This document shows, one piece after another, positions 4,852 to 38,285 of a stretch of 64,000 nucleotides of DNA. This DNA is from a virus (lineage: Duplodnaviria > Caudoviricetes). Position 1 is the stretch's first letter. Every line of letters begins with the position of its first letter. Where the stretch lies: IMG/VR virus record IMGVR_UViG_3300048502_000104, positions 805 through 64,804 of that record. The stretch is one strand, 5' to 3'. Under the pieces are notes generated by a model that ran no database searches, had not been told where the DNA came from, and saw only the letters and a list, made by a program, of their open reading frames with translations. The position numbers and the translations under genes are program-made.

Positions 4852-5247
4852 TCAGTTGATCTGTTGCTGCAGCCGGCGCATGACCAGGATCACGTTCAGC
4901 GAGGTGGTGCCGTCGCCGGCGGTGCAGGACGGGCGCACCTGGAGCGGGGCCTCGGTCATCTGCTTGAGCGCGGCCGCGGTGTAGCTCATCGCCACCCCGT
5001 TCTGGTCGGTCAGCGTGATCGGGTTCGCCGGCGCGGGCGGAAAGCCCGTCTCGTTCGAACCCTGGATCACGATCGTCCCACCCGCGCCGAACGTGCCGTA
5101 GATATGCACGGTGCGGTCGGCCCACTCGGGCAGCTGCACCCACGCACCGACGTCGCCGTTCGCCAGGGGCGCCCACTGCACGATGACGACCGCGCCATCG
5201 GCCGAGCCGTAGCTGCTACGGTTGATGCTAGCTGCCTGAGTTGCCAT
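4852..5247 (-). CDS. Hypothetical virion protein
   Basis: 131 aa directly downstream of portal, GGAGG RBS. Confidence 0.6.
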   Translation of the reverse strand: MATQAASINRSSYGSADGAVVIVQWAPLANGDVGAWVQLPEWADRTVHIYGTFGAGGTIVIQGSNETGFPPAPANPITLTDQNGVAMSYTAAALKQMTEAPLQVRPSCTAGDGTTSLNVILVMRRLQQQIN

Positions 5248-7576
5248 TCGAACCTCCGTCGTACGGGCCGGGCTCGGACGGCGCGGCCGATTGGTCTTGC
5301 GGTTGCAGCAGTGCCTGCGCCTTCAGGTGGTGTTCGGCGGCAGCCAGTTCCTTCTGCGTGTTGGTCTGGATCACGATCTTCGCGAGCGACGACTGGATTT
5401 GCTGCAAGCTGATGTTCTGCTTGTTGGCCATCTGCAGCATCGCGACTTCCTTCTGCGCCTGCAGCTCCTCGAGGCGGGCCGCGCGATCGGTATCGGCCTT
5501 CTGCAGCATCGTCTGCGCCTCGAGCTGCGCGATCTTTTCTTGCGAAGCGGTGCGCGCCTGCTCGCCCTGCGTCTTGATCTGTGCGGCCATGACGCGCGGG
5601 TCTTGGTGCTGCTGCGCGGCCTGCTGCTGCGCCTGCATGCGCTGCGCGATCACGGTCGGGGTCGCCATGATCTCAGTTGGGTCGATGTGCTGCGCCTTGA
5701 GTGCGGCCTCGAACAGCTTCTGCAGGTCGAGGAACACCGCGTACGTCGGGTTCGAGCCCTGCTGCAGCAGGTTCATAAACGCCTGGTTCTGGATGTCCCG
5801 GACCAGGAGTGCGCTCGTGCCGCGCGCGTCGACGGCGAAGTCGCCCTTCACGTCGTCGTGCTCGGAGTAGAGCATGTTGTAGTCGTAGTACCGGGTGATG
5901 TGCGGGCGCGTGATCATGTCGTCCCACTGCTTCACCAGGCGCCGCAGCACCACGTTGCTGCTGTTCATCAGCAGCTGCATCCCACCGACCGTCTCGGGCG
6001 CGGTGCCCTTCTCGCCCTGGGCGAGCATCGGGACCGCGGTCTCCTCGTCGACCAGTTTCATCGAGAACTCGATGACCTTGATCAGCTCGTCGGCGTGGCT
6101 GTTGAACTCGATCGAGTTGAAAGCCATCCGCACGTCGGGCACATCGCTATTGGCCCACCAGACCTTGCGCGACGTCAGCGTCCACTCGCCGTCGGCCGGC
6201 TCCACACTCCCGCGCTTCAACACGATTTGCGGGCCGGCGGTGATGCCCAGGTTGTCCATCAGCTGCCGCCAGCAGCTATTGATCACCTTCTGCTGGGCGC
6301 GCATCAGGTACGGCACGCCGTAGCCCCACACGGAGCCGGTGACCTTCTCCCACACGTAGAAGTCGTACGGCAGGTCACCCGTGTCGATCGGGTTCAGGTG
6401 CACCTTCACGACGGTGTTGTTGACGAAGATCACGCACGCGCGCACGCGTGACAACGGGTCGTCGAAGTCGATGTCACCGAGGAGCTCGGGTGGGATGCCG
6501 CCTGCCAGTGCCTGCTCGGCGGTGATATCGCCCCAGTATTCCCACTTCTCGAACGTCTTATGTAGCTGCGACGTGTCGATCTCTTTGTCCGGCCCGGGCA
6601 CCGGCTGCACGAGGGTCGCCGTCGTCTTCGGCCCCTCCATCAAGACCTTGCGCAGCTGGTCCTTCATAAACCCAGGCTGCAGCGCGAGGTCGCGGATCTG
6701 GCGACCCGTGCACACCTCGCGCTCGAAAATCCCTTCGCCCTTCTGGTGGTCGTCGCCGCAACCCGGATCGGTCCAGACGTTGCGCGGATCGACCTCGTAG
6801 GATGCAGGCAGCGCTTCCTCCTGCATCGCGATCTGGTAGAACGGCTTGCCGGTGGCGTCCGTGCTCTTCGCCCAGCTGCGGCGGTACTTGTTCGTGACTA
6901 CCGGCCCCTTCAGGACACCGGTGCCCAGCATCGCGGCGTAGTGCAAAACCTTGCGTTGCACGCCGTTGTAGTCGGTCTGGTTCAGCTGGCGGTCGATCAG
7001 CTCCTGCATCGCCTTGCAGGCATCCGACACCGCTTCCATGATCAGCAGCGCGGCTTTACTCTTCGCGAGCGTGTTGCCCGCGGCGTCGACGATCGGCTGG
7101 TCCTGGTGGTCCGTCGCCGGCCCCTGTTCCTTCGCCATACGCGCGAGCGACGAGTCCGGCGCCGGCTGGATGCCCCAGTTGCGATCGTCGGTTGGCAGCA
7201 GGATGTCGGCCAGGCGCGCTTCGCCTGCGTTCGTCTTCTGCCGCGTCAACCCGATGAAGATGGTCGAGCGCGTGGCGCGCGCGTGTTCCTTGACCACCGG
7301 GAAGCCCTGTTCGGCGGCCTCCATCATCGACGACGTTTGGCGGTTCGCCTCGTCGCGCTGATGGTACTGGTCGGTGTCCTGCTCCCAGCGCTTATCGACC
7401 CCCTGCGCGGCGCGCTCGCGGATCCACTCGTCGCGCTTTTTCGCGAGAACGTTCCCTAGGCCCCACAGCACCTCGTCAGACGGATCCTTCGCCTGAGACT
7501 GGTCGTCGGTGCCGCTCCCGTCCCCGGTTCCGGGAAATGGCGGCGGCTCGTCAGGGAAATCGGTTGCGCCGGTCAT
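5228..7576 (-). CDS. Portal protein (P22-like podoviral type)
   Basis: 782 aa downstream of terminase; GTGVLKGP, VDPRNVWTDPG, WEYWG, PYDFYVWEK...VWGYGVPYLMR motifs; Gln-rich C-terminal coiled coil. Confidence 0.85.
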   Translation of the reverse strand: MTGATDFPDEPPPFPGTGDGSGTDDQSQAKDPSDEVLWGLGNVLAKKRDEWIRERAAQGVDKRWEQDTDQYHQRDEANRQTSSMMEAAEQGFPVVKEHARATRSTIFIGLTRQKTNAGEARLADILLPTDDRNWGIQPAPDSSLARMAKEQGPATDHQDQPIVDAAGNTLAKSKAALLIMEAVSDACKAMQELIDRQLNQTDYNGVQRKVLHYAAMLGTGVLKGPVVTNKYRRSWAKSTDATGKPFYQIAMQEEALPASYEVDPRNVWTDPGCGDDHQKGEGIFEREVCTGRQIRDLALQPGFMKDQLRKVLMEGPKTTATLVQPVPGPDKEIDTSQLHKTFEKWEYWGDITAEQALAGGIPPELLGDIDFDDPLSRVRACVIFVNNTVVKVHLNPIDTGDLPYDFYVWEKVTGSVWGYGVPYLMRAQQKVINSCWRQLMDNLGITAGPQIVLKRGSVEPADGEWTLTSRKVWWANSDVPDVRMAFNSIEFNSHADELIKVIEFSMKLVDEETAVPMLAQGEKGTAPETVGGMQLLMNSSNVVLRRLVKQWDDMITRPHITRYYDYNMLYSEHDDVKGDFAVDARGTSALLVRDIQNQAFMNLLQQGSNPTYAVFLDLQKLFEAALKAQHIDPTEIMATPTVIAQRMQAQQQAAQQHQDPRVMAAQIKTQGEQARTASQEKIAQLEAQTMLQKADTDRAARLEELQAQKEVAMLQMANKQNISLQQIQSSLAKIVIQTNTQKELAAAEHHLKAQALLQPQDQSAAPSEPGPYDGGSNGNSGS

Positions 7577-8805: not shown

Positions 8806-10299
8806 TCAGTACCCTGTTTCGCGGTCGAGCACACCGAAGCCGGCGATCTTGGGAGCGGTAGCGGTGCGCACGTTGGTTGTGCCGTTAAGACGCATCTCGA
8901 CGGGCGACACCGCGTGGCGCCGCATCATCATCGCGATGCGCGACGCACTGATCAGGTCGTCGCGAAGTTTCACGACCTGGCCATTCAGTCTGTGCATCCC
9001 CTTGAACTCCTCGAACCACTTCACGCAGGTCGAGAACACTTTCCAGCGGCCGGTCTGCATGCGATCGAGCATCTCGCTGATACCCGCCTCGAAGCCGTAG
9101 TTCTGTTGGTCCTTGTCATCACCGAAGGTTGCGTGCGTCGGCAGCATCTTCAGCTCGTAGTCGTCGCGGTAGATCTGCGAGTACGCCTTGCCGCTCTTCG
9201 GATCGTGCTTGTGGCCATCGTGCGGCCACGCCACCGGGATCCACTTGCCCTGCGGCAGCATGTTCATCGCGTGCGTACCGATCGTCGCCTTCGCCTCGCG
9301 GTACTCGCGGTAGACGTAGATCGTGTCGGTGTCGCCGTCGTAGGCCAGCCACACGGCGGCGAACGGGTGGTCCCAACCGAAGTCGATGCCGCAGATCCGC
9401 CGCCACCAGTTCGGGATCGGGAACGGGTCCACGCGGATCGCCGACTCCGACACCGGGAACACGAGGCCCTCGCCCATGACCGGGCGGCCGAAGGCGCGCG
9501 CATCGCGGTCCGCATCCGTGTAGCCGGCGATGATCTCGGCGCGCCGCTCGGGGCTGTAATGCAGCGCGTCCTCGAGCGTCATGTTGATGAGAATGCGGCC
9601 AGGTGCGAGCGGCTTGTCCTCCAGCGGCATGAACAGCTGCACCACCTCCGACATCCCCAGCAACGGGGTGAACGTCGTGATTACCGGCCCGCCCTCGACC
9701 TGGACGCGGGTCTTACCCTCCTGGTAGATCGGAAGCGGCGGCTCCTCGTCGAACCACACGCCGGTCAACGTCTCCGCCTGCCACTTCGTGCGGCCCTGGT
9801 CGTATGACGACAGGGTGATGATCGAGTCCTCGCCCAGCTCGTGCCGGACCACGATCGAGCTGACCGCATCCTGCACGCCGGTCTGCCGCACCACGCGTTT
9901 GATGCAGTCGTAGGGGATTGCCCCCGTGCCCCACATCTCTTCGGCGGCGGGTGGGCCCAGCAGCACGCGCTGGATGCCCTTCTTGTTCAGCTCAAACGAT
10001 TCGGATCCCGCCAGCCATGTCGTAGCGCGGTGGAAGCGCCGGCCGGTCCACCAGGCGGGGTAGCGGCCGGTCAGGTGCATGGCAACCTCTGCCGCGCCAG
10101 CCCAGGTCTTCCCGGACTGGTTGGAAGCCATGAACATCCGTTCCTGGTAATCGGCCCCGGCCGCATGGAACTCGGCCTGCTTGGGGTACGGCTTGTAGCT
10201 GGCGAGCCAGTTGCGCTTTTTGGCGGTGTCGGCCAGCTTGAACAACTGCAGCAGCTCGGCCTTCTCCGCGTCGTCCAGCTTCGTGAGGTCGAGGCCCAT
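8806..10299 (-). CDS. terL: Terminase large subunit
   Basis: ASNQSGKT (Walker A-like), VWFDEEP (Walker B), TFTP coupling motif, GIDFGWDHP and DDLISA nuclease motifs. Confidence 0.93.
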   Translation of the reverse strand: MGLDLTKLDDAEKAELLQLFKLADTAKKRNWLASYKPYPKQAEFHAAGADYQERMFMASNQSGKTWAGAAEVAMHLTGRYPAWWTGRRFHRATTWLAGSESFELNKKGIQRVLLGPPAAEEMWGTGAIPYDCIKRVVRQTGVQDAVSSIVVRHELGEDSIITLSSYDQGRTKWQAETLTGVWFDEEPPLPIYQEGKTRVQVEGGPVITTFTPLLGMSEVVQLFMPLEDKPLAPGRILINMTLEDALHYSPERRAEIIAGYTDADRDARAFGRPVMGEGLVFPVSESAIRVDPFPIPNWWRRICGIDFGWDHPFAAVWLAYDGDTDTIYVYREYREAKATIGTHAMNMLPQGKWIPVAWPHDGHKHDPKSGKAYSQIYRDDYELKMLPTHATFGDDKDQQNYGFEAGISEMLDRMQTGRWKVFSTCVKWFEEFKGMHRLNGQVVKLRDDLISASRIAMMMRRHAVSPVEMRLNGTTNVRTATAPKIAGFGVLDRETGY

Positions 10300-12299: not shown

Positions 12300-12373
12300 T
12301 GGTTGCGGGGGCTGGATTCGAACCAGCATTTAGGCGGTTATGAGCCGCCTGCATCCCGCTCTGCCACCCCGCC
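12300..12373 (-). tRNA. tRNA with CAT anticodon (Met/fMet/Ile2 identity ambiguous), encoded CCA
   Basis: GGCGGGG TG GCAG AGCGGG ATGC A GGCGG-CTCATAA-CCGCC TAAAT GCTGG-TTCGAAT-CCAGC CCCCGCA A CCA; 74 nt cloverleaf. Confidence 0.9.
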
Positions 12374-13926: not shown

Positions 13927-14110
13927 GGTGATTCCTTTATAAAGAAAGTCTTTAGATTGCCCGGCACCGCGCCGCGCGCTTTGGGAGCCCTGTTGCGCCC
14001 GGGCGGGCCGCCGCGAGCGTGCAGGGGTGCCGGGGCCTTTCGTGACCATCTACGGCAAACGGAGGGCCAAAAGGGTCCCGGCCAAACGCCGCGACACGCC
14101 GACTTGCCGA

Positions 14111-14509
14111 TCACGTCAGGTTGGTCAGCGCCCTGCGGTTGCGCTGCTGGCGCTTGGCCGCTTCTGCGTCCCACATTTGCTTGTGCGTCGCCACCGCGCC
14201 GGATCGCTTCACTGGCGGTTGGAGTGTCGCGGCCGAAGGTGGCGCGAGGGATGACTGCGCGCTCTGCCCGTATGACGGCGCGTTATTAGCCGGTGCGGCC
14301 GAAGCCTGGTCCGCGACACTGCCTGCCTGGGCCGAACCCGCCGTCGAGTCGTCTGAGTCGTCGTCCTCGTCATCCGCCGAGCCGGTGATCAGCTGTGTCA
14401 CGGCGTCGGCCAATTCCTGCGGATCAGAGAATGATCTGGTGGGGATCGGCTTGCCATCGACCGTACCGGACAACTGGAGGTCGGCGATGTGGAGTGTCGC
14501 GGTCTGCAT
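14111..14509 (-). CDS. Hypothetical protein (first gene of leftward late block)
   Basis: 132 aa, GAGGA RBS, acidic tract and basic C-terminus. Confidence 0.6.
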   Translation of the reverse strand: MQTATLHIADLQLSGTVDGKPIPTRSFSDPQELADAVTQLITGSADDEDDDSDDSTAGSAQAGSVADQASAAPANNAPSYGQSAQSSLAPPSAATLQPPVKRSGAVATHKQMWDAEAAKRQQRNRRALTNLT

Positions 14510-14570
14510 AGGCGTGTTTCGTCCTCGTAGGGCATCGCGCGTGGTGCGAATCGTGGGGGAGGGTATCTGG

Positions 14571-14584
14571 AGTGAGCACTTACG
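14571..14584. promoter_or_regulatory. Copy of 14-bp pseudo-palindrome over start codon of first rightward gene
   Basis: AGTGAGCACTTACG at the divergence point of late and early blocks. Confidence 0.5.
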
Positions 14585-14790
14585 TCAAGCGAATTGACGC
14601 CGACTACGCGGAAGGCAGCGCTATCGCCTACGCCGAATACAAACGCCGGCTGACTGTCGCGCAGCAGCTGTACGGCCTGGGCCTGAGCACCGATCAACAG
14701 TACGTGCGGGATGTCGAGGCGGCCGAGCAGGATTACGGGAACCTGCGCCGCTGGCTGATCGAGCGCCTCGAAGAGACCGTCGAGTTGTAG
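14572..14790 (+). CDS. Hypothetical protein
   Basis: 72 aa, GTG start; stop 2 nt before hammerhead 1. Confidence 0.6.
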   Translation: MSTYVKRIDADYAEGSAIAYAEYKRRLTVAQQLYGLGLSTDQQYVRDVEAAEQDYGNLRRWLIERLEETVEL

Positions 14791-14792
14791 CA

Positions 14793-14852
14793 GGCCGAAA
14801 CCCGGCGCAGGCCGGGTCGCACCGTGACGCGGTGCCTGATGATGGCCATCAG
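14793..14852 (+). ncRNA. Type II hammerhead ribozyme, copy 1 (predicted cleavage after 14818)
   Basis: GGCC-GAAA-[CCCGGC GCAG GCCGGG]-UC-[GCACCG UGACG CGGUGC]-CUGAUGA-U-GGCC: all core nucleotides, stems I/II/III, GUC triplet. Confidence 0.85.
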
Positions 14853-14876
14853 CTAACCCGTTGAAAGGACAGCAAA

Positions 14877-15878
14877 ATGTCGCATGCAATCACGATGATA
14901 GGCAACACGGCGCAAGCCGCCTACGCGGAAACCAAGGCGTGGCATGGCCTGGGCCAAATCCTGCGCCGCGGCGCGAGCCTGGAAGAGTGGGCGCAAGCCG
15001 CCGGCTTCGACTGGGAAGTCAAGCGCGCGTTCGTCCGCTACCTGACCGGCCCGGAGGGTCAGCCCGGCAGCAACCTGCTCGTCGACAAAGACAACGTGGT
15101 CTTGTTCGCCAGCGACACCAAACAACGCGTCGGCATCGTCTCCGACACCTACAAGATCGTGCAGCCCATCGAGCACCTGGAATTCTTCCGGGAGTGGATC
15201 GAGGCGGGCGGGGCGACGATGGAATCGGCGGCCTGGCTGCATAACCGCGCGCGCTGCTTCGCCCTGGCGCGCATCGGCGACGAAGTGGCACTCGGTGCGA
15301 ACGGCACGGACCGCATCATCCCGTACGTGCGCGTCAGCGGCTCGGTGGACGGCAGCACAGCCACCGAGGCGGGCGGTACGTCGCTTCGCGTCGAGTGCGC
15401 CAACATGTTACAGCTGTCCCTGGCGCAAGACAAAAGCGTGTACCGGTGCTCGCACCGCAGCAAGTTCCAGCCCGCCGAGGCGCGCGCCGCGGTCGAGAGT
15501 CAGATCAAGGCTTTCGGCGCGTTCGTCGAGGCGGCGCGCACGCTGGCGCGTCGCAAGGTGGCCGCGGCCGAGGCGGACGCGTTCGTTCGCTCAGTACTGG
15601 CAAGTCAGCCCGCGGTGGTGGCGGACGACGTAGCCGACAAAGCGCGTGCTTCCGCCGGGTACAAGAAAGTGCTCGCGCTGTTCAACGGCGAGGGCGGCGG
15701 CAGCGCCCTGGCCACGGCGCGCGGCACCGCCTGGGGACTGCTGAACGCCGTCACCGACTACGTAGACCACTCTATCCGCGCCACGTCGGATGACCAGCGT
15801 CTCAACAGCGCGATGTTCGGTGCGGGTAGCCAGATCAAGGCACGCGCCGCGCAGGCAGCGCTCGCCCTGGTCGCGTAA
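14877..15878 (+). CDS. DUF932 family protein (phage/plasmid TIGR03299-like)
   Basis: AWHGLG, VSDTYKIVQP, LHNRARCF, RVECANML, SHRS, GTAWGLLNAVTDYVDH motifs. Confidence 0.85.
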   Translation: MSHAITMIGNTAQAAYAETKAWHGLGQILRRGASLEEWAQAAGFDWEVKRAFVRYLTGPEGQPGSNLLVDKDNVVLFASDTKQRVGIVSDTYKIVQPIEHLEFFREWIEAGGATMESAAWLHNRARCFALARIGDEVALGANGTDRIIPYVRVSGSVDGSTATEAGGTSLRVECANMLQLSLAQDKSVYRCSHRSKFQPAEARAAVESQIKAFGAFVEAARTLARRKVAAAEADAFVRSVLASQPAVVADDVADKARASAGYKKVLALFNGEGGGSALATARGTAWGLLNAVTDYVDHSIRATSDDQRLNSAMFGAGSQIKARAAQAALALVA

Positions 15879-15880
15879 CA

Positions 15881-15942
15881 GGCCGAAACGCCAGCGCGAG
15901 CTGGCGTCGCACCGTGATGCGGTGCCTGACGATGGCCGTCAG
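15881..15942 (+). ncRNA. Type II hammerhead ribozyme, copy 2 (predicted cleavage after 15908)
   Basis: GGCC-GAAA-[CGCCAGC GCGA GCUGGCG]-UC-[GCACCG UGAUG CGGUGC]-CUGACGA-U-GGCC; stem III differs from copy 1 but is fully paired. Confidence 0.85.
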
Positions 15943-15965
15943 CAACCTTCCCTGGAGATACAGCA

Positions 15966-16256
15966 ATGGCAGCACTAACAATCGAGCTGGACCGCAGCAC
16001 GCTGGAAACGGTAATCGGCGCACTCGCCGACAAGCATGCCGCGCTGCGGCGGCGCGCCGCCGCATTCCGGGCCGCCGACAACCTCGCCGCCGCCTACGCC
16101 GCCGCCGACGCCGCCGACGCCGCCGCCGCCGCCTACTACGCCGCCTACGCCGACGCCTACGCCGACGCCGCCGCCGACGTGGCACGCCTGGAGCGGGTTC
16201 TGCAACAGCTGGAGTCGGAGCGCACGCGTCTAGCGCATTCGCGGTACCTCAAGTAG
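15966..16256 (+). CDS. Hypothetical protein with Ala/Asp/Tyr low-complexity tract
   Basis: 96 aa, GGAGA RBS after hammerhead 2. Confidence 0.65.
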   Translation: MAALTIELDRSTLETVIGALADKHAALRRRAAAFRAADNLAAAYAAADAADAAAAAYYAAYADAYADAAADVARLERVLQQLESERTRLAHSRYLK

Positions 16257-16324
16257 TCCTTTATATGTCAAGCTACGTTCAGTTGGCGGGCGTCTTGCCC
16301 GCCATAACCAAGGGAGTGGGGAAC

Positions 16325-16591
16325 ATGGATGCAATCAAGTACCTGGGCCACGGCGCCCGCACCGGCGCCCTGCAGCAGCACAGCGTCGACGATTTGATCT
16401 ATCCGTACATCGTCTACGCGCAGGAGACCGCGCACGGCACGCTGTGGGGCGTGACGCACGCGAACGGCGACTTCGACACGGGCGCTAAGTTCACCTGCGC
16501 CCACGCGCACAGCCTCGCGCGCCGCGCGCGGCAGTATCGCAGCGAGCTGGCCATCCGGGCGAGGGATCGGCTGGATAGTCGGCCGAACTAG
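16325..16591 (+). CDS. Hypothetical protein
   Basis: Start MDAIKYLGHG; the G of its TAG stop is the first base of hammerhead 3. Confidence 0.6.
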   Translation: MDAIKYLGHGARTGALQQHSVDDLIYPYIVYAQETAHGTLWGVTHANGDFDTGAKFTCAHAHSLARRARQYRSELAIRARDRLDSRPN

Positions 16592-16650
16592 GCCGAAACC
16601 CGGCGCAGGCCGGGTCGCACCGTGATGCGGTGCCTGACGATGGCCGTCAG
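16591..16650 (+). ncRNA. Type II hammerhead ribozyme, copy 3 (predicted cleavage after 16616)
   Basis: Stem III as copy 1; loop I and core as copy 2. Confidence 0.85.
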
Positions 16651-16673
16651 CAACCTTTCCTGGAGATGCAGCA

Positions 16674-16850
16674 ATGGCAAAGTACACGGTTTACGTTACG
16701 CGCACGACCACCTACGAGGTCGAGGCGGATGGCCCGGAGGATGGCGAAGATAACCTCCTGGAGCTGTGCGACGACGACACCGAAGTGGATCAGGTCACTG
16801 ATAGTGTCGAGGTCGTGCCCCAGAACGCGTCGGCGGGGGTCACGCCATGA
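16674..16850 (+). CDS. Small acidic protein (58 aa)
   Basis: Hand translation MAKYTVYVTRTTTYEVEADGPEDGEDNLLELCDDD...; GGAGA RBS; below the ORF-track size cut-off. Confidence 0.6.
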   Translation: MAKYTVYVTRTTTYEVEADGPEDGEDNLLELCDDDTEVDQVTDSVEVVPQNASAGVTP

Positions 16851-17017
16851 AAGATCAGGAGCTGAAAGATCGGCTGCGCCGCCAGCGCGCCGAGGACGAG
16901 GCTTACTGGCGCAAAGGGCACAGCGACGCGTACCTGCGTCGGCTGCGCGACTGGTCGCAATCGCGCGACAATTCGGCGAAGCGGATTGCCGCCGCCACAA
17001 CACCCGGGAGGCGGTGA
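16847..17017 (+). CDS. Small basic protein (56 aa)
   Basis: ATGA overlap; MKDQELKDRLRRQRAEDEAYWRKGHSDAY... Confidence 0.55.
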   Translation: MKDQELKDRLRRQRAEDEAYWRKGHSDAYLRRLRDWSQSRDNSAKRIAAATTPGRR

Positions 17018-17096
17018 TGGTCTTTATGAACCGTTGGGATATCGACGAGGCCCTCGCACGCGCGCGGCCTGCTTCCCTGGACTGGAGGGATTGACG

Positions 17097-17333
17097 ATGA
17101 TCAACCTGCTTAAGTGGGCGTGGTTTGCGCGCGAGCAGCACGTCACCTGCACGCGGTGCACCCTCGGCTGCCCGGCTGAGGGTGGATTCTCCGACGCGGC
17201 GCTGTACGCCGAAGGGCGGCCCAGTTTCGTCTGTGCGAACTGCGCGAAAGGCAAGCCGCCCGTCTTCCCCGTGGCGCCGAAGGTGCTCGCTCAGGCCGCG
17301 CCGCGCATCGACCCCGACGACGTCATTTTCTAG
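17097..17333 (+). CDS. Small Cys-containing (CxxC...CxxC) protein
   Basis: MINLLKWAWF...CTRC...CANC; GGAGG RBS. Confidence 0.55.
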   Translation: MINLLKWAWFAREQHVTCTRCTLGCPAEGGFSDAALYAEGRPSFVCANCAKGKPPVFPVAPKVLAQAAPRIDPDDVIF

Positions 17334-17341
17334 GAGGCATC

Positions 17342-17443
17342 ATGCGCCGCGCCGCCGTCTGGACAATCCTAAAGCTCTGGCGCGTGATGCCGCTGCGCCT
17401 GAAGCTGTGGGCTTTTATGAACGACGATATGCCCGAGGATTAG
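17342..17443 (+). CDS. 33-aa peptide
   Basis: GGAGG RBS; stop 1 nt before hammerhead 4. Confidence 0.45.
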   Translation: MRRAAVWTILKLWRVMPLRLKLWAFMNDDMPED

Positions 17444-17444
17444 A

Positions 17445-17506
17445 GGCCGAAACGCCAGCGCGAGCTGGCGTCGCACCGTGATGCGGTGCCTGACGATGGC
17501 CGTCAG
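17445..17506 (+). ncRNA. Type II hammerhead ribozyme, copy 4 (predicted cleavage after 17472)
   Basis: Same ribozyme sequence as copy 2. Confidence 0.85.
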
Positions 17507-17529
17507 TAACCTTTCCTGGAGATACGAGA

Positions 17530-17844
17530 ATGGCGAATTACCGAATCACCATCTGCGCGCGGTTCCGCGATGGCACCACCAACGAGACCGTAAGCGTCCA
17601 CCACGCGAACCTGGTACCGCTGGAGGCGGTGGGGCGCGCCGTACGCAAGCACTACGGGCGCGGCGCCTACTTCCGCACCGGCCGCCAGGAGCCCACGGGC
17701 GGCAACGTGATCGCCGGCACCATCGCGCGTGATCAGCCGTTCAAGCGCGCGCCCTTTGGGGCCGAGCTGGTCGGCAGCGTCGAGACCATGATCCTAGCGC
17801 ACGCCGTGGCGACCGTCACCCACCATCGCAAGGTGCGGCCATGA
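17530..17844 (+). CDS. Hypothetical protein
   Basis: 104 aa, GGAGA RBS after hammerhead 4. Confidence 0.65.
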   Translation: MANYRITICARFRDGTTNETVSVHHANLVPLEAVGRAVRKHYGRGAYFRTGRQEPTGGNVIAGTIARDQPFKRAPFGAELVGSVETMILAHAVATVTHHRKVRP

Positions 17845-17957
17845 AGGGCGCGAAGAACTGGGCGCTGATCATCGTCTCGACCTGCGCGCTGACCGGATTG
17901 AGCGCGGGCCTCTTTGCGATCTGCATCAGCGCAGCGCGCACCGGGGCGCTGGCATGA
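17841..17957 (+). CDS. 38-aa single-TM peptide
   Basis: ATGA overlaps on both sides; MKGAKNWALIIVSTCALTGLSAGLFAICISAARTGALA. Confidence 0.45.
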   Translation: MKGAKNWALIIVSTCALTGLSAGLFAICISAARTGALA

Positions 17958-19339
17958 TCACCGCAACCACAGGAGCTGAAATGAACACTGCAACCACCGT
18001 CACGACGGCCGTCGAAGCGCCGGCCGAGGTCGAGGTCATCGCCGTCAAGGGCTTCGACAAAGATCTGAAATGCCGCGGCTTCCAGTACGAGATCGGCAAG
18101 TCGTTCGAGCATGACGGCCAGGTCATGGCCTGCGAATCGGGCTTTCATGCCTGCGAGCGGCCCAGTGACGTATTCGCCTACTACGCGCCTGGCGAGTCGC
18201 GGTTCGCCGTTGTCAAGCTGAGCGGCGAGCTGTCGCGGCATGGCGGAGACTCCAAGATTGCCGCTGCGCGCATCACCATTGAGGCCGAGGTCGGCGTTCC
18301 GGAAATCGTCAAGCGCACGATCGATTGGGTCATCTCGCATTGCGAGCCGGAAGGCGAGCAGGCCACGGGCACCAGAGGCGCAGCGTCGGCCACGGGCTAC
18401 CAGGGCGCAGCGTCGGCCACGGGCTACCGCGGCGCAGCGTCGGCCACGGGCGGCAGCGGCGCAGCGTCGGCCACGGGCGACAGCGGCGCAGCGTCGGCCA
18501 CGGGCGACGGCGGCGCAGCGTCGGCCACGGGCGACGGCGGCGCAGCGTCGGCCACGGGCTACCGCGGCGCAGCGTCGGCCACGGGCGGCAGCGGCGCAGC
18601 GTCGGCCACGGGCGACGGCGGCGCAGCGTCGGCCACGGGCTACCGCGGCGCAGCGTCGGCCACGGGCGACAGCGGCGCAGCGTCGGCCACGGGCGACGGC
18701 GGCGCAGCGTCGGCCACGGGCGACAGCGGCGCAGCGTCGGCCACGGGCACCAGAGGCGCAGCGTCGGCCACGGGCTACCAGGGCGCAGCGTCGGCCACGG
18801 GCTACCGCGGCGCAGCGTCGGCCACGGGCGACGGCGGCGCAGCGTCGGCCACAGGCTACCGCGGCGCAGCGTCGGCCACGGGCGAGGGCGGCGCAGCGTC
18901 GGCCACGGGCGACGGCGGCGCAGCGTCGGCCACGGGCTACCGCGGCGCAGCGTCGGCCACGGGCGACAGCGGCGCAGCGTCGGCCACGGGCGACAGCGGC
19001 GCAGCGTCGGCCACGGGCGACGGCGGCGCAGCGTCGGCCACGGGCTACCGCGGCGCAGCGTCGGCCACGGGCGGCAGCGGCGCAGCGTCGGCCACGGGCG
19101 ACAGCGGCGCAGCGTCGGCCACGGGCACCAGAGGCGCAGCCATGGCTTCCGGTCGATTCGGCCGCGCCATGGGCGCCGAGGGCTGCGCGCTATTCCTGGT
19201 CTACCGCGGCGAGGACTGTAAGATCGTCCACGCGCGAGCAGCTATCGTCGGACGCGATGGCATCAAGCCCGACACGTGGTATTCGCTCAGCGATGCCGGC
19301 GAGATTGTGGAAGCCGCGAGGAGGTGGGAGCGTGATTAG
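17954..19339 (+). CDS. Phage protein with conserved N-domain and GAASATGxx repeat
   Basis: KGFDKDLKCRGFQYEIG...CESGFHACE...DSKIAA N-domain; repeat region; C-terminal DGIKPDTWY. Confidence 0.8.
   Translation: MITATTGAEMNTATTVTTAVEAPAEVEVIAVKGFDKDLKCRGFQYEIGKSFEHDGQVMACESGFHACERPSDVFAYYAPGESRFAVVKLSGELSRHGGDSKIAAARITIEAEVGVPEIVKRTIDWVISHCEPEGEQATGTRGAASATGYQGAASATGYRGAASATGGSGAASATGDSGAASATGDGGAASATGDGGAASATGYRGAASATGGSGAASATGDGGAASATGYRGAASATGDSGAASATGDGGAASATGDSGAASATGTRGAASATGYQGAASATGYRGAASATGDGGAASATGYRGAASATGEGGAASATGDGGAASATGYRGAASATGDSGAASATGDSGAASATGDGGAASATGYRGAASATGGSGAASATGDSGAASATGTRGAAMASGRFGRAMGAEGCALFLVYRGEDCKIVHARAAIVGRDGIKPDTWYSLSDAGEIVEAARRWERD
18361..19140 (+). repeat. 27-bp in-frame tandem repeat (~29 units)
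   Basis: GGCGCAGCGTCGGCCACGGGC plus 6 variable nt encoding TR/YQ/YR/GS/DS/DG/EG. Confidence 0.95.
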
Positions 19340-20060: not shown

Positions 20061-20517
20061 TCACTATGCGGTAGGCTTGCGACGTAGCGATACCGAAGTG
20101 CGGCGCGACCCGGTACGGCGGGAAGCCAGCCTCCACCCACGCGCGAAACACAGGAATAGCCGCCTCGCTTATCTTGGTGCACGGATGGGCGTCACCCACC
20201 GCGCGGCCGAACCGAACCCGGCCTTTAGCTTTGCAGTCGCGCAAATTGTCTGTGGCCGTCCCGACCCAGAGGTGCGTAGGGTTGACGCAGGCCCGGTTGT
20301 CGCAGCTGTGGCAAACATCGAGGGCGGCAGGCCACGCGCCCCGCGTCAAAAACCAGACGGCGCGATGCGCTCCTACCTGGCCCTCACGACAACCTATGAA
20401 TACGCACCCGTAGCCGCTTTGCTTACCCCCCTGCCACTCCCAACACTCGTCCAGGCCGCGCACTTCAACCTTCGACCAGAATCGCTCCGCAAGCGTCTTT
20501 GTTTTTCGATTCGACAT
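20032..20517 (-). CDS. HNH endonuclease (homing-type)
   Basis: RFWSKV...CWEWQG...AHRAVW...VCHSCDNRACVNPTHL...NLRD. Confidence 0.9.
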   Translation of the reverse strand: MSNRKTKTLAERFWSKVEVRGLDECWEWQGGKQSGYGCVFIGCREGQVGAHRAVWFLTRGAWPAALDVCHSCDNRACVNPTHLWVGTATDNLRDCKAKGRVRFGRAVGDAHPCTKISEAAIPVFRAWVEAGFPPYRVAPHFGIATSQAYRIVNGEARCGHP

Positions 20518-21946
20518 AGCTCTTCACACCCTCCCAAAAGTCTTGCTTGCGATCCAACGCATCGAGCACCATGCGCTCCATCGGGTGCGCGGTGACGATC
20601 CGGTAGACGAAGCAGCGATCGCTTACTTGCCCCGGCCGCCGCAGCCGCGCGTTGGCCTGCGCGTACAGATCATAACTCCAGGTGAGGTTGAACCACACCA
20701 CAGTCGAGCCGCCGGCCTGCAGGTTCAACCCGTGCGCCGCCGAGGCCGGATGCGCCACCAGTACCTTCACGCGCCCAGCCAGCCACGCCTCCATCGCGCC
20801 AGGCTCCTCGATCAGCTTCGCGCGAGCGCCGAGCGCTTTCATAATCGGAGGTCGGTCGTGGTCGAACCCGATGAGGCAGAACACGCCGCCCCGCGCCTGT
20901 TCCACCACCTCCAGGAGTGCCTCGACCTTGGCGCTGTGAAGGCGCTGCACGTACCGGCCGAACCCGTCGGTGACGTAGAGCGCGCCGGCGCACACTTGCA
21001 GCGCCTTGTTCAACCCAGCTGCCACAGACGCAGGAAGGACGGACAGCCCAGGCTGCACCAGGGTGAGCGCGTTGTCCATCAGATCCGAGGCCGCGCGCGA
21101 CAGCTCCGGCGACAAATCCACTTCGAGATCGACCACCACCTCTTCCGGGAGCTGAAGATGCCCGGCGCTGGACATGGATACCCAGACCTTCGCGATGGCG
21201 TCCTTCAGCTCGCGCTCCGCCGCGTCGTCGCGCGGCACCCAGGTGCGGGCCACGCTGTAGGGCGTCGCATCCTTCATAAACCGCTCTCGAAAGCCGCCCA
21301 GCGTCGGCTCCAGCGTCTCGCCGCGGTCGAGCAGGTACTGCTGAGGCCAGATGTCGTCGAACGATCCCTCTGAGGCGAACATGCCGGCCAGCCCGATGCG
21401 CCGCCGCGCGCCCGCCGACAGCTGCCTGGCGCCGCTCCAGCGGTTGCTGGCACGATTCTTGGCAAGAGACAGCTCGTCGAAGACGAGGCCGTCCCAGGGT
21501 CGGCGCTGCCCGAGTGCTAACGCCAGCCAGTTGACCGCATCCCACGACGTGATGCAGATGCGGTGCGCCGCCGCGGCGGCCAGAAGGTGCGCGCGGGTAG
21601 CGCGCCGGTCCCGGAACCAAAGCTGGCCGGCCGTAACGTCCTTGGGCACCGCGCCGTGGTCGACGTCGCCTTGCGTGGCTCTCCGCAGGTCCAGGTCATC
21701 GTGGGTCAACACGCGCAGCTCCGCCGGCTTGGCCAGGCCCCATTTGATGGCCTCCGCGCCCCATACGTGGTCTCTGACGCGCTTCGGCGCAACCACGAGC
21801 CACCTACCCACGTCCAGCGCCCAGCGGGCCGCCCAGAGGGCTATACGCGTCTTGCCCATGGACATGGCGAGAGACAGGCCGATGTAGGGCTGGCGCAGCA
21901 CGCGCTCCCCCACCTCCAGCTGGTACGGCCGCAGGTCAGGCAACAT
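20465..21946 (-). CDS. SNF2-family (SF2) helicase
   Basis: LRPYQ, SMGKT, VFDELS, HPASAAHGLNLQ, QANARLRRPGQ. Confidence 0.88.
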   Translation of the reverse strand: MLPDLRPYQLEVGERVLRQPYIGLSLAMSMGKTRIALWAARWALDVGRWLVVAPKRVRDHVWGAEAIKWGLAKPAELRVLTHDDLDLRRATQGDVDHGAVPKDVTAGQLWFRDRRATRAHLLAAAAAHRICITSWDAVNWLALALGQRRPWDGLVFDELSLAKNRASNRWSGARQLSAGARRRIGLAGMFASEGSFDDIWPQQYLLDRGETLEPTLGGFRERFMKDATPYSVARTWVPRDDAAERELKDAIAKVWVSMSSAGHLQLPEEVVVDLEVDLSPELSRAASDLMDNALTLVQPGLSVLPASVAAGLNKALQVCAGALYVTDGFGRYVQRLHSAKVEALLEVVEQARGGVFCLIGFDHDRPPIMKALGARAKLIEEPGAMEAWLAGRVKVLVAHPASAAHGLNLQAGGSTVVWFNLTWSYDLYAQANARLRRPGQVSDRCFVYRIVTAHPMERMVLDALDRKQDFWEGVKSYVESKNKDACGAILVEG

Positions 21947-35919: not shown

Positions 35920-36222
35920 ATGGCACTGAATCGAATCAAGGGTTGGCTGCTGTACCGGCTAGCCGACGCGCTGCTGGCTCTGGCGGCGTCTAATCGCGCG
36001 CTGGCCAGGCAGCGCAAGGTCAGCGAGTTCCGCCGCGCCCAGGCATCGCGGTGGTTCCAGGAATACTACGTCTGCCGCAAGCTGCTCGAGGAGTCGCGCG
36101 ACCCGTTCGAGATCAACGGAATGTTGGATGCGGACCCAACCATCCAGGCTCGCCGCGCCCAGGCGGACGCGGCCGGCGAGCCCTGCGGCTTCGATCGCGG
36201 CGGGCACTGGACCGGCGCCTGA
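35920..36222 (+). CDS. Hypothetical protein
   Basis: Start MALNRIKG, GGAGG RBS. Confidence 0.55.
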   Translation: MALNRIKGWLLYRLADALLALAASNRALARQRKVSEFRRAQASRWFQEYYVCRKLLEESRDPFEINGMLDADPTIQARRAQADAAGEPCGFDRGGHWTGA

Positions 36223-38285
36223 TGGCTTACGACGTCCTGCGCCTCGACGGCGAGACGTACGCCGCGGTGGACCTGCCCGAGGTGGGTCTGTACCGCTACG
36301 CGCGCGACCCGTCGTTCGAGATCCTGCTGATGGCCGGCCAGCTGAACGATGGGCCGGTGGTCTGCTGGGATCTGGCGCAGGGCGAGCGCATCCCGCCCGA
36401 GATTCAGCAGGCGCTGGTGAGCCCGGACGTGATCAAGGTCGCGTGGAACGCCTACTTTGAATTCGTCACGCTGCAGGAGCACTTCGTCGGGATGCAGTTC
36501 GACATCCGCCAGTGGCGCTGCAGCATGACCCACGCCATGATGCTCGGGCTGCCGGCCAAGCTGTCCGAGGCGGCCATCGCCTTGAAGCTGCCGCAGGAGC
36601 AGCGCAAGTCGGCGGTGGGGCGGCAACTCATCAAATACTTCTGCGGCCCGTGCAAGCCGACCAAGGCCAATGGGATGCGCTCGCGCAACCTGCCACGCGA
36701 CGACCCGGCGAAGTGGGAACTTTTCATAGACTATAACAAGCAGGACGTCGTCACCGAATCGTCGGTGCTGGCCGCGCTCGACGGCCTGGGCACGTTCATA
36801 CCAGGCGAAGGCGGCGACGAATGGATGCAGCGCGAGCACCGGTTCTGGGCGGAGATCGACCACCCGATCAATGCGCGCGGCGTGCCGATCGATGGCGCGT
36901 TCGTCGACGGCGCGATCAAGATGGACGGCGACTACCGCGCCGAGCTCGAGGCGAAGATGACGCGCATGGCTGGGATCGAGAACCCGAACAGCGCGCCGCA
37001 GTTCAAAGCCTGGATGTTGAAAGAGACCGGTGTGATCTGCGACGCGCTCAACAAAGAGACGATGCCCGAGTTGCTGCGCACCGCGCCCACCGATCTGGTG
37101 CGCGAGATGCTGCAGCTGCGCGAGGAGATCGCGCAGACCGCGTCCGTCAAGTACCATGCCGCACGCCGGGCCGCTGGGCCGGACGACCGCGTGCGCGGAC
37201 TGTTGCAGTTCAACGGCGCGCCGCGCACCGGGCGCTGGAGCGGACGCCTCGTGCAGATCCACAACATGAAGAAGGGGGTCAGCCCGATCTTCGACGCGCT
37301 GCGGGAGGCGGTCAAACGCGGCGACCGCGACTTCGTCGACATGTGGTTCGGCGGGGTGAACACCGCGCTCGGGCACCTGGTGCGCTCGATCTTCGCGCCC
37401 GCGCCGGGCCGCGTGTTCGTCGGTGGCGATTGGTCGGCTATCGAGGCGGTGAACCTCGCCTGGTTGGCCGATGAAAAATGGCGCCGTGAGGTGTTCGCCA
37501 CGCACGGCAAGCTGTACGAGGTGAGTGCGTCGAAGATGTTCAACGTACCCTGGTCGGAATTCCAGGCGTACATCGACCAGAAGAAAAAGCATCCACTGCG
37601 CCAGAAGGCGAAGGTGGCCGAGCTGGCGCTGGGATTCCAGGGCGGCCCTGGGGCCATGATCACGATGGGCGCGCTCGATGAAGGCATCCCCGAGTCGGAG
37701 CTGCCAGGCATCGTGGACGCGTGGCGCCTGGCGAGCCCGCGCATCAGCAACTGGGACGATGGCCTGTGGATCCGTCTGCAGAACGCGGCCATCGCGTGCG
37801 TGTTGAGCGGGCGCGCGATCGAGGTGAAGGTCGGCCCGGACAACTGCAGCGCGGTCTGGTTCGAGATCCGGCGCAACAAGCTGGGCTACAAAGTCCTGCA
37901 GATGCACCTGCCGTGCGGACGCCGGCTGTCCTACTTCGACCCGCAGGTCGCGAAGGATCCGAAGTTCGGCAAGAGCGCCGTCAACTACAAGGGTGTCAAT
38001 GACAAAAAGCAGTGGAACGTCATCTGGTCTTACGGGGGCAAGTGGACGGAGAACCTGGACCAGGCGATGGCCGCCAGCATCCTGCGCGAAGCGCTCGATG
38101 CGCTGCGCGATGACCCGGCGGCATTCCACGTTCACGACGAAATCCAGCTCGAGGAATCGATCGAGCGCGCGTCGGCGCTGGCCGCCCGGCTGAAGGCAGT
38201 GATGGAGCGGCCGCTGAAGTGGGCGCCTGGGTTGATCTTGAAGGCAGAGACGGAGATCCTGCCCTACTACCGGAAAACGGATTGA
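36222..38285 (+). CDS. polA: DNA polymerase family A (SPO2/APSE-like)
   Basis: Exonuclease DGETY, AWNAYFE, YNKQDV; polymerase DWSAIE, RQKAKVAELALGFQGG, HVHDE. Confidence 0.92.
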   Translation: MAYDVLRLDGETYAAVDLPEVGLYRYARDPSFEILLMAGQLNDGPVVCWDLAQGERIPPEIQQALVSPDVIKVAWNAYFEFVTLQEHFVGMQFDIRQWRCSMTHAMMLGLPAKLSEAAIALKLPQEQRKSAVGRQLIKYFCGPCKPTKANGMRSRNLPRDDPAKWELFIDYNKQDVVTESSVLAALDGLGTFIPGEGGDEWMQREHRFWAEIDHPINARGVPIDGAFVDGAIKMDGDYRAELEAKMTRMAGIENPNSAPQFKAWMLKETGVICDALNKETMPELLRTAPTDLVREMLQLREEIAQTASVKYHAARRAAGPDDRVRGLLQFNGAPRTGRWSGRLVQIHNMKKGVSPIFDALREAVKRGDRDFVDMWFGGVNTALGHLVRSIFAPAPGRVFVGGDWSAIEAVNLAWLADEKWRREVFATHGKLYEVSASKMFNVPWSEFQAYIDQKKKHPLRQKAKVAELALGFQGGPGAMITMGALDEGIPESELPGIVDAWRLASPRISNWDDGLWIRLQNAAIACVLSGRAIEVKVGPDNCSAVWFEIRRNKLGYKVLQMHLPCGRRLSYFDPQVAKDPKFGKSAVNYKGVNDKKQWNVIWSYGGKWTENLDQAMAASILREALDALRDDPAAFHVHDEIQLEESIERASALAARLKAVMERPLKWAPGLILKAETEILPYYRKTD

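Follow-up and report, generated by a model that had tools for sequence, protein, structure and literature searches.

Type II hammerheads in phages and prophages

Clustered type II hammerhead ribozymes flanking phage genes are a published and common arrangement (Perreault et al. 2011, PMC3088659). Such clusters beside prophage genes cleave in vitro, and the set from Agrobacterium tumefaciens also cleaves in E. coli (PMC3088659). In Desulfovibrio vulgaris, activity inside the cell has been observed for three type II hammerheads (PMC8782182). The prophage arrays of A. tumefaciens, Azorhizobium caulinodans and Clostridium scindens contain several ribozymes per transcription unit, placed among small and poorly conserved genes (PMC3088659, Figure 3), and were proposed to cut a long phage transcript into messages of single-gene or block length (PMC3088659). 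In the described type II consensus, stem II has 2 bp, and the tail behind it engages a loop I of about 10 nt in a Watson-Crick pseudoknot of at least 4 bp; this pseudoknot is found in the majority of the members, but not in all of them (PMC3088659). The role of bacterial and phage hammerheads is still treated as open in reviews (PMC6155905).

We analyzed a 64-kb stretch of phage DNA (the window), which contains a comparable array of four elements. They share with the type II hammerheads of bacteria and prophages the core, the permutation, the intergenic phage or prophage habitat and a short stem II (PMC3088659; RF02276). However, stem II is a fixed 4-bp GGCC/GGCC helix preceded by an invariant A, an extra U follows A9, loop I has the 5-nt form U-N-A-N-G, and the tail pairs with the catalytic core and at most weakly with loop I. 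The array resembles those of the prophages in carrying several ribozymes among small genes of one putative transcription unit, but cleavage was demonstrated for the latter (PMC3088659) and is predicted for the former. Only the core-masking tail is unusual.

Structure of the four elements

The four elements, each of about 61–63 nt, lie on the plus strand and contain a full hammerhead core in type II order. In all of them, GGCC is followed by GAA, stem III bounded by A15.1 and U16.1, C17, a 6-bp stem I with a 5-nt loop, CUGAYGA, a single U and the second GGCC. The core (C3, U4, G5, A6, N7, G8, A9, G12, A13, A14, A15.1-U16.1 and H17) is complete in the four copies, and the permutation is that of type II, with the 5' and 3' ends in stem II and with stems I and III closed by hairpin loops.

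Copy 1 (14792–14852) begins with A(-1) at 14792, followed by the 5' strand of stem II (14793–14796), G12A13A14 (14797–14799), the stem III hairpin (14800–14817) and C17 (14818), and the predicted cut lies between 14818 and 14819. The stem I hairpin with the loop UGACG (14819–14835), the core CUGAUGA (14836–14842), the extra U (14843), the 3' GGCC (14844–14847) and the masking tail AUCAG (14848–14852) complete this copy. Copy 2 (15880–15942) has GGCC at 15881–15884, GAA at 15885–15887, a second sequence version of stem III with 8 bp at 15888–15907, C17 at 15908, stem I with the loop UGAUG at 15909–15925, CUGACGA at 15926–15932, the extra U at 15933, the 3' GGCC at 15934–15937 and the tail GUCAG at 15938–15942. 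The first G of the 5' GGCC (16591–16594) of copy 3 (16590–16650) is the final base of the upstream TAG; GAA (16595–16597), stem III (16598–16615), C17 (16616), stem I (16617–16633), CUGACGA (16634–16640), the extra U (16641), the 3' GGCC (16642–16645) and GUCAG (16646–16650) follow. Copy 4 (17444–17506) consists of GGCC (17445–17448), GAA (17449–17451), stem III (17452–17471), C17 (17472), stem I (17473–17489), CUGACGA (17490–17496), the extra U (17497), GGCC (17498–17501) and GUCAG (17502–17506). Stem III has two unrelated sequences, CCCGGC/GCCGGG in copies 1 and 3 and CGCCAGC/GCUGGCG in copies 2 and 4, and both pair perfectly.

All four copies were recognized by sequence. For a degenerate pattern of the element, 100 shuffles gave an expectation of zero chance matches. 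A covariance model built from relatives found exactly four sites in the whole 64-kb phage, with scores of 78.3, 78.4, 81.5 and 78.2 bits for copies 1 to 4 (E of about 1e-21), and its next match reached 12.6 bits. There are no further copies in the phage. The shuffles and the gap in the model scores exclude a chance origin. The copies are near-identical paralogs within the window. By these sequence measures, the four elements are real type II hammerhead motifs.

A sequence-only reading of this DNA had already proposed four type II hammerheads at these coordinates, with GUC cleavage sites after 14818, 15908, 16616 and 17472, one extra nucleotide between A9 and G10.1, and two unrelated but perfectly paired stem III sequences. 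Each of these statements agrees with our analysis. The type II assignment is further supported by the family-wide covariation of the three stems and by a core that is invariant except at N7. The check that it had suggested, a search with the Rfam Hammerhead_II model (RF02276), succeeded only in part. Copies 1 and 3 matched, but at 28.8 and 29.9 bits they fell under the gathering cut-off of 37 bits, and copies 2 and 4 were not listed by this model even at E up to 10. A search of Rfam at gathering thresholds matched a tRNA alone and no hammerhead.

G10.1 and C11.1 are paired, yet one U stands between A9 and G10.1. When this U is read as an insertion, the rule against mispairs at this site is kept; a strict descriptor would reject the elements. 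The extra nucleotide lies beside the A9/G10.1 metal site and could slow catalysis. De la Pena and Flores reportedly found that an extra U at this place is tolerated or even beneficial, and it is said to occur in two natural hammerheads. Hammerheads of viroids and satellites that have one additional nucleotide at this position, such as that of the CChMVd (+) strand (De la Pena and Flores 2001, J Biol Chem 276:34586, as cited in PMC2632901), are of type III and belong to circular plant RNAs, whereas the insertion is the majority state in the phage subfamily described below.

Gene context

The four ribozymes punctuate a plus-strand gene block (14572–19339; GC3 of 0.76–0.90 in the frames). Minus-strand genes flank this block on both sides; it diverges from those ending at 14509 and converges on those from 19551 onward. 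Ribozyme 1 separates the genes 14572–14790 and 14877–15878, the latter encoding a DUF932 protein. The genes 15966–16256 and 16325–16591 lie between ribozymes 2 and 3. Five genes (16674–16850, 16847–17017, 17017–17094, 17097–17333 and 17342–17443) lie between ribozymes 3 and 4, and 17530–17844, 17841–17957 and 17954–19339 (DUF7666, with collagen-like repeats) follow ribozyme 4. PHROG and Pfam matches were obtained for three genes of the block. Within each smaller block the genes overlap or abut, and the ribozymes are confined to the junctions between blocks. The earlier label of 'early operon' is plausible for this region.

From the end of the upstream stop codon to the 5' GGCC there are 2, 2, -1 (overlapping) and 1 nt in copies 1 to 4, in line with the earlier statement that the elements start within 2 nt of a stop codon. 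The distance of about 23 nt that it had given to the next ATG also stands, being 23–24 nt when counted from the end of the conserved tail. However, its repeat was drawn too short, and the AUCAG or GUCAG tail beyond the 3' GGCC, which is complementary to the core, had gone unremarked.

The tail of copy 2 is followed by a leader with a GGAGA ribosome-binding site and ATGGC (15943–15970), and the same unit recurs at 16651–16678 and 17507–17534. These leaders are part of a direct-repeat family (D4) of 91 nt with 77–95% identity, which in copies 2–4 covers the ribozyme, the ribosome-binding site and the start codon. The leader of copy 1 has a different sequence with AAAGGA (14853–14879). In copies 2–4, the ribozyme was evidently duplicated together with its ribosome-binding site.

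Distribution and covariation of the subfamily

The same architecture was found in 153 distinct elements from viral contigs and also in cultured Streptomyces phages, where Satis and its relatives have two intergenic copies each. When the scan was restricted to the 17-nt tail hairpin, it gave 109 sites, of which 68 are preceded by GGCCGAAA, stem III, U-H and stem I; when the tail was omitted, at least 118 stretches were obtained. Judged from these sequences, the elements form a widespread phage and prophage subfamily of type II hammerheads. Its marks are the invariant A before the 4-bp GGCC/GGCC stem II, the extra U after A9, a 6-bp stem I with the U-N-A-N-G loop, and a stem III that is free in length. 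The extra U is optional, being present in 132 of the 153 elements and absent in 19.

Covariation was examined in a model-based alignment of 89 sequences. In this alignment, which is itself fitted to the model, 99.1% of the cells pair, and the covariation score is 0.747, compared with 0.146 for shuffled sequences and at most 0.10 with slid partners. At 13 of the 16 pairs both sides change; these pairs are spread over all three stems, and two of them belong to stem II. The core positions G12, A13, A14, A15.1, C3, G5, A6, G8 and A9 are identical in all 89 sequences, U16.1 and C17 in 88 and U4 in 87, and 84 of 85 rows keep the A15.1-U16.1 pair. The sole variable core position is N7 (U 44, C 32, A 7 and G 6), which is exactly the hammerhead rule. 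The stems contain G-U pairs, and every copy is on the coding strand ahead of a ribosome-binding site; therefore, the constraint acts on RNA. A role at the DNA level, such as a recombination site or a hairpin promoter, is ruled out by the G-U pairs, the strand specificity and the fixed place before the ribosome-binding site. No promoter sites were found at the elements, and the promoter reading was rejected.

The hammerhead of Pseudomonas phage PaP3 was assayed by Perreault et al. (PMC3088659). No subfamily member was found in PaP3 with the relatives-built covariance model at E up to 1; therefore, the PaP3 assay is not transferable to the subfamily. The motif CUGAYGAUGGCC is absent in either orientation from the primer table and the descriptors of Perreault et al. 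(PMC3088659), and the A. caulinodans primer sequences have CUGACGA directly followed by GGCCC, with no inserted U. The subfamily scores 29–32 bits with RF02276 against the cut-off of 37 bits. The Rfam type II model thus misses it, and phage annotation pipelines under-count these ribozymes. The alignments from this analysis could seed a better type II model.

The core-masking tail and the two folds

About half of the subfamily, including the four copies in the window, has a 3' tail CRUCAG, which is complementary to CUGAYG of the core. The complementarity between tail and core is bimodal, with 1–2 bp in 69 elements and 5–6 bp in 80. The only free pair of the resulting masking hairpin, between N7 and the first tail base, is C-G in 53 elements, U-A in 17 and U-G in 3. 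Copies 1 and 3 of the window differ at three positions, two of which are the compensatory N7/tail pair.

The hammerhead fold and a fold with three hairpins are only 0.5–1.0 kcal/mol apart in all four copies. The minimum-energy fold is the hammerhead in copy 1 and the inactive three-hairpin fold in copies 2–4, and a large share of the molecules of the latter copies could therefore be trapped uncut.

Most of the described type II hammerheads are accelerated by a Watson-Crick pseudoknot of loop I with the 3' tail. Covariation supports neither this pseudoknot in the subfamily nor its being the reason for the tail. UGA of loop I could pair with UCA of the tail by 3 bp, plus a U-G pair in copies 2–4. 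The second base of loop I is G in 44 of 69 tailed members, compared with 16 of 63 untailed members. The fourth base does not covary with the tail, and U-N-A-N-G is equally conserved in the untailed members.

Proposed mechanism and alternative explanations

Sequence and computation establish the motif and its conservation, covariation in every helix (the masking hairpin included) and nearly equal energies of the two folds; that the RNA is cleaved, in what order the folds form, and how message stability and translation are affected is inferred. The ribozymes most likely cut one long message into separate messages, as arrays of this kind are usually read (PMC3088659). The block 14572–19339 would be transcribed as a single RNA, in which the stem III and stem I hairpins form at each element and the two GGCC strands close the three-way junction. 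The RNA would then cut itself 3' of C17, after 14818, 15908, 16616 and 17472, and the halves would be joined solely by the 4-bp stem II. The tail could now pair with the core, using the last C of GGCC, and the resulting third hairpin would set the upstream fragment free and prevent re-ligation. The downstream message would have a 5'-OH end flush with two hairpins and a free ribosome-binding site 23–24 nt before the ATG, while the upstream message would carry a 2',3'-cyclic phosphate and terminate with the stem III hairpin, 26–28 nt past its stop codon. We consider it probable that the elements are genuine type II hammerheads of a widespread phage and prophage subfamily that act by such a transcript-cutting mechanism with a tail lock. 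Cleavage followed by locking may be the order of the two folds; masking before cleavage is equally allowed by the data.

If the third hairpin formed first, the tail would be an off-switch, and the ribozymes would be mostly inactive until opened, for example by a protein, by temperature or when a 30S subunit loads onto the ribosome-binding site, which lies 23 nt downstream. Message cutting would thereby be coupled to translation or to the infection stage. In copies 2–4 the three-hairpin fold is the ground state, and in no copy does it differ from the active fold by more than 1 kcal/mol; the tail leaves the polymerase just 1–6 nt after the last base that the active fold needs, and the hairpin is kept by covariation and hence selected. 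In the actinophage members, the core has a potential competitor for the tail in an upstream CUGAC that includes the upstream stop codon. However, with such near-equal energies the active fold would often be sampled, and because the parting of the halves makes cleavage practically irreversible, a simple equilibrium would still reach full cleavage. Moreover, the tailless members, about half of the subfamily, occupy the same gene context, and no ligand pocket or protein site is evident. We consider an off-switch unlikely. The three hairpins, the sub-threshold Rfam scores and the four near-identical paralogs, whose conservation within the window proves little, would also be expected of non-catalytic intergenic repeats (REP-like elements, or RNase III or RNase E sites) that stabilize the message or mark it for host nucleases, with the hammerhead letters incidental or a dead relic. 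This is very improbable, as the unpaired G12, A13, A14, C17/H17, C3–A6 and G8–A9 are invariant across 153 divergent elements, in which stems I and III vary freely and N7 is the only free core position. Stem II is not needed in the three-hairpin fold and yet covaries at two pairs, the A15.1-U16.1 pair is fixed, and the third hairpin is missing from half of the family. The elements are not terminators either; no terminator-like site was found at the four elements, and no U-run follows the third hairpin.

Hammerheads also catalyze the reverse reaction, ligation. After two successive cuts, the 5' half of one ribozyme might join the 3' half of its predecessor through their shared GGCC/GGCC helix, rebuild a hammerhead and ligate the ends of the cassette into a circular message. 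Such chimeric reassembly is sterically possible because type II products are joined by stem II alone, which is identical in the four copies. However, the tail would sequester the 3' GGCC strand and the core after cleavage and oppose re-association, and a 4-bp helix would have to hold ends that are 0.7–1.1 kb apart. Perreault et al. sought spliced or circular products of such arrays and found none (PMC3088659). The peat RNA runs described below contain no back-joined contig, at a coverage far too thin for this to count. We regard circular messages as extremely improbable.

We prefer cleavage before locking as the order. The subfamily has a clean design, a ribozyme fixed between a stop codon and the next ribosome-binding site with an alternative helix that covaries with the sole free core nucleotide. 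A lock of the cleaved state by the tail, if it exists, would explain how a ribozyme with a 4-bp stem II achieves one-way processing, and how each gene block obtains protected 5' and 3' ends without host RNases. RiboJ, which Lou et al. reportedly engineered in 2012 from a type III satellite ribozyme, is said to place a hammerhead and then a hairpin before a ribosome-binding site. The likeness is one of working principle only, in that ribozyme, hairpin and ribosome-binding site give a uniform, short and structured 5' leader whatever is upstream. The RiboJ hairpin is not known to mask the core, whereas the phage unit is natural, can mask its core with the tail, and is duplicated with its ribosome-binding site. 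We tentatively suggest, as a possibility short of a probable one, that the tailed element is a two-state ribozyme with a built-in lock. Upon cutting, the tail would capture the core and one strand of stem II, expel the upstream fragment, forbid re-ligation and leave a 5'-OH leader of two hairpins before a portable ribosome-binding site, as a natural equivalent of RiboJ across phages of many bacterial phyla. In a bolder form of this proposal, ribosomes would read the two states, coupling cutting to translation.

RNA data from peat

Contig ends in the peat RNA lie at 14795 and 15884, and a contig start lies at 17488, all of them at repeat borders, where assemblers break anyway; none of the contigs bridges a ribozyme. 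They are silent on cleavage, expression and strand. Three peat metatranscriptome runs contain 8–13% of the words, and 17 short pieces of metatranscriptome contigs match the region 14000–18100 with at least 99% identity. This phage or a near-identical one occurs in the peat samples.

Four hammerhead elements between gene blocks

The virus record is complete (64.8 kb; G+C 66-71%) and carries four direct repeats on the plus strand of the window, at 14792-14852, 15880-15942, 16590-16650 and 17444-17506 (copies 1-4). Each begins with A, GGCC, GAA, a perfect hairpin opened by A and closed by U, and C. A 6-bp hairpin (GCACCG/CGGUGC) capped by the loop UGAYG follows, and the 3' part consists of CUGAYGA, U, GGCC and RUCAG. 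In hammerhead numbering, these parts are the 3' strand of stem II, G12 A13 A14, stem III (A15.1-U16.1), C17 and stem I, followed on the 3' side by C3-A9, one inserted U and the 5' strand of stem II.

This is the type II permutation with a GUC cleavage triplet, as a sequence-only reading had proposed, and the complete core is read in all four copies. That reading had placed C17 correctly at 14818, 15908, 16616 and 17472. The extra nucleotide that it noted between A9 and G10.1 is a U in every copy, and the two unrelated stem III sequences that it described (one in copies 1 and 3, the other in copies 2 and 4) both pair perfectly. Its repeat boundaries stand in part. The upstream stop codons do lie close by, ending 2, 2, -1 and 1 nt before GGCC (copies 1-4), the third overlapping it. 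The distance of about 23 nt to the next ATG is 23-24 nt when measured from the RUCAG tail, but the repeat of copies 2-4 does not end there; it runs on via a GGAGA ribosome-binding site to ATGGC (repeat family D4, 91 nt). Therefore, the duplicated unit is the ribozyme together with a translation start.

Comparative evidence for the hammerhead class

At curated thresholds, Rfam returned only a tRNA and no hammerhead. The Hammerhead_II model (RF02276), which had been suggested as a check, matched copies 3 (29.9 bits) and 1 (28.8 bits) under permissive settings, both below the cut-off of 37 bits and with E-values of 0.002-0.004 for a 2.9-kb stretch; copies 2 and 4 were not listed even then. Such sub-threshold matches alone are weak, and the comparative evidence is decisive.

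A blastn search of the region against cultured phages matched the element alone, in five 186-kb Streptomyces phages. Phage Satis has two copies between small genes, in which stems I and III differ from those of the window, while the core, inserted U, GGCC and tail are the same. Viral contigs scanned with the 17-nt 3' part (CTGAYGATGGCCRTCAG), a query that left everything upstream unspecified, yielded 109 sites, 68 of which are immediately preceded by GGCCGAAA, a U-closing hairpin, H and another hairpin. When the tail was left out of the query, a second scan returned at least 118 stretches. Among the matches listed, the hammerhead pattern also occurs in genomes of many bacterial phyla, a collection for which we calculated about 20 chance matches.

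The covariance model R1, derived from 45 relatives, recovered exactly four sites in the window (78-81 bits), after which scores fell to 12.6 bits. In the model-based alignment A2 (89 sequences), 99.1% of cells hold standard pairs, a value somewhat inflated by fitting to the model, though not to the observed extent. The covariation score is 0.747, compared with 0.146 for shuffles and at most 0.10 for slid partners, and both sides change in 13 of the 16 pairs, including two of stem II. G12, A13, A14, A15.1, C3, G5, A6, G8 and A9 are present in all 89 sequences, U16.1 and C17 in 88 and U4 in 87, while N7 can be any base (U 44, C 32, A 7, G 6). Generic hairpins were rejected because the unpaired core is fixed, one core position is free and the stems covary freely. 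This combination is the hammerhead signature, and the four elements are almost certainly members of the class.

Features of the subfamily

The family alignments A2 and A3 were pooled to give 153 distinct elements. Stem II is almost always GGCC/GGCC and is preceded by A (88/89 in A2); stem I has 6 bp. Loop I has 5 nt in 136 of the 153 elements and reads U (135/136), N, A (104), N, G (118). Given the fixed length of stem I, the invariant A and the U-N-A-N-G loop, loop I may make a non-Watson-Crick tertiary contact with the open end of stem II. In this subfamily, such a contact would take the place of the pseudoknot that links loop I and the tail in the described type II consensus (PMC3088659).

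The residue after A9 is U in 132 elements, absent in 19, A in one and G in one. The insertion of U is therefore optional but the majority state, and the core is otherwise canonical. An extra U after A9 is reported to be benign or beneficial. Viroid hammerheads likewise carry an additional nucleotide there (De la Pena and Flores 2001, cited in PMC2632901). Arrays are typical of the subfamily, and several contigs have three or four copies in 2 kb (e.g. L112, L082). The assayed PaP3 ribozyme falls outside it.

A tail complementary to the catalytic core

RUCAG follows the 3' GGCC in all four window copies and in about half of the family. Together with the last C of GGCC, it is the exact complement of C3-G8. 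Tail-core complementarity is bimodal (1-2 bp in 69 elements, 5-6 bp in 80), a count inflated by the first scan, whose query included the tail; about 45% of the 80 stretches listed from the tail-free scan carry it. Five of the six pairs use invariant core bases. The sixth, between N7 and the first tail base, is C-G in 53 cases, U-A in 17, U-G in three and other in two; discordant Y/R combinations, which the first-scan pattern permitted, were found only at sites without a hammerhead. Two of the three positions that differ between copies 1 and 3 form a compensatory N7-tail pair. On this evidence, the hairpin CUGAYG-AUGGC-CRUCAG is under selection.

The tail may also have other partners. Loop I could form a pseudoknot with it (UGA with UCA), and the second loop base is G in 44 of 69 tailed and 16 of 63 untailed elements. 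The fourth loop base, however, does not track the tail, and untailed elements conserve the loop motif just as well (153 elements). Actinophage-like members have a conserved CUGAC, complementary to the GUCAG tail, at 3-5 nt upstream of the 5' GGCC; the TGA stop codon of the preceding gene is part of this CUGAC (contigs L010, L011, L026, L029, L041, L050, L066, L078, L079, L085 and L001:2678-3069). As a second rival partner for the tail, it might lengthen stem II or link folding to the termination of translation; the window copies have no upstream CUGAC.

The AUG created by the inserted U (A9-U-G10.1; window 14836-14856 and the same part of copies 2-4) opens a five-codon mini-ORF in copy 1, AUGAUGGCCAUCAGCUAA. 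These AUGs would be buried by the masking hairpin.

Predicted folds and a possible role of the tail

The masking hairpin cannot coexist with the active core or with stem II. For the complete hammerhead and three-hairpin folds, the nearest-neighbour energies are -31.2 and -30.7 kcal/mol for copy 1, -32.0 and -33.0 kcal/mol for copies 2 and 4, and -31.1 and -32.1 kcal/mol for copy 3. When the tail is removed, the minimum-energy fold is the hammerhead. The predicted 3' products of copies 1 and 4 begin with two hairpins flush with the 5' end; the second hairpin, of 5 bp, also forms in copy 2, and copy 3 has a different, long-range minimum-energy fold over its 75 nt. The stem III hairpin forms the end of the predicted 5' product.

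From these sequences, genuine self-cleavage in infected cells is probable. The long transcript would cut itself at each element and, because the ribozyme is of type II, the products would then be joined by the 4-bp stem II alone. The tail would capture the core and one stem II strand, releasing the upstream fragment and blocking the reverse reaction. We propose this cleave-then-lock role tentatively, with some doubt. That the same hairpin acts as an off-switch instead of a post-cleavage lock is unlikely.

Under cleavage followed by locking, the upstream message would keep its stop codon and 26-28 nt beyond it, enough for normal termination, and its last hairpin would bear a cyclic phosphate. 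A 5'-OH and two hairpins would open the downstream message, whose ribosome-binding site would be free. As bacterial mRNA decay is generally understood, such ends would be expected to shield the messages against 3' exonucleases and 5'-end-dependent RNase E or J, and each block's leader would not depend on upstream sequence.

Relation to known arrays

The array is real, yet it is an expected kind of element, since phage hammerhead arrays and their cleavage have been published. Perreault et al. proposed that long phage transcripts are processed to gene-length mRNAs; they demonstrated that three such arrays cleave, and saw no spliced or circular products (PMC3088659). A 2017 review regarded hammerhead function as still open (PMC6155905), and three type II hammerheads were shown to be active in Desulfovibrio vulgaris cells (PMC8782182). 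No description of the variant architecture with a covarying masking tail was found in the accessible literature; the 2011 alignments may include the subfamily.

Gene context

The elements lie in a plus-strand block (14572-19339), delimited by GC3 and family matches, which is divergent from the minus-strand genes that end at 14509 and convergent with those from 19551. It has genes for a 72-aa protein, a DUF932 protein and a DUF7666/collagen-repeat protein, along with nine small genes that belong to no known family. One flank holds the structural module on the minus strand (portal/adaptor, 5228-7576; terminase, 8806-10299), and the other holds replication genes (helicase, 20465-21946; DNA polymerase, 36051-38285). 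Early expression of the block is plausible. Genes abut or overlap within its sub-blocks (e.g. 16847/16850, 17015-17019), and the ribozymes occupy longer gaps between these. A search for sigma-70-like promoters and for terminators at the four elements found none.

The only long gap of the block without a ribozyme (16257-16324) contains a plain 7-bp G+C hairpin without a U-run (16285-16303, GGCGGGC-GUCUU-GCCCGCC), placed between an Ala/Asp/Tyr-rich gene and the next gene. The former, a 96-aa ORF directly behind hammerhead 2 (15966-16256), is mostly low-complexity Ala, Asp and Tyr, is built from 9-18-nt DNA repeats (GCC GCC GAC / TAC) and has no family match. The 461-aa DUF7666 protein (17954-19339) contains about 39 tandem copies of a 27-nt unit (18226-19281), so that the protein repeat is 9 residues long; it has tail-fibre-like PHROG matches and, at borderline strength, a collagen-repeat match.

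Elsewhere, the interval that separates the structural module from the ribozyme-bearing block holds a tRNA gene (12303-12373, minus strand, 52.8 bits). A single 3308-aa ORF (40492-50418, minus strand) is possibly a giant virion or ejected protein; its C-terminal 800 residues strongly match phrog_18222 (unknown function), and its N-terminus is weakly lysozyme-like. Metatranscriptome contigs from three studies place the phage or a near-identical relative in peat samples, and the divergent region upstream of the block (14000-14541) is matched by peat contigs at 99% identity or more with the highest depth (maximum about 60-69).
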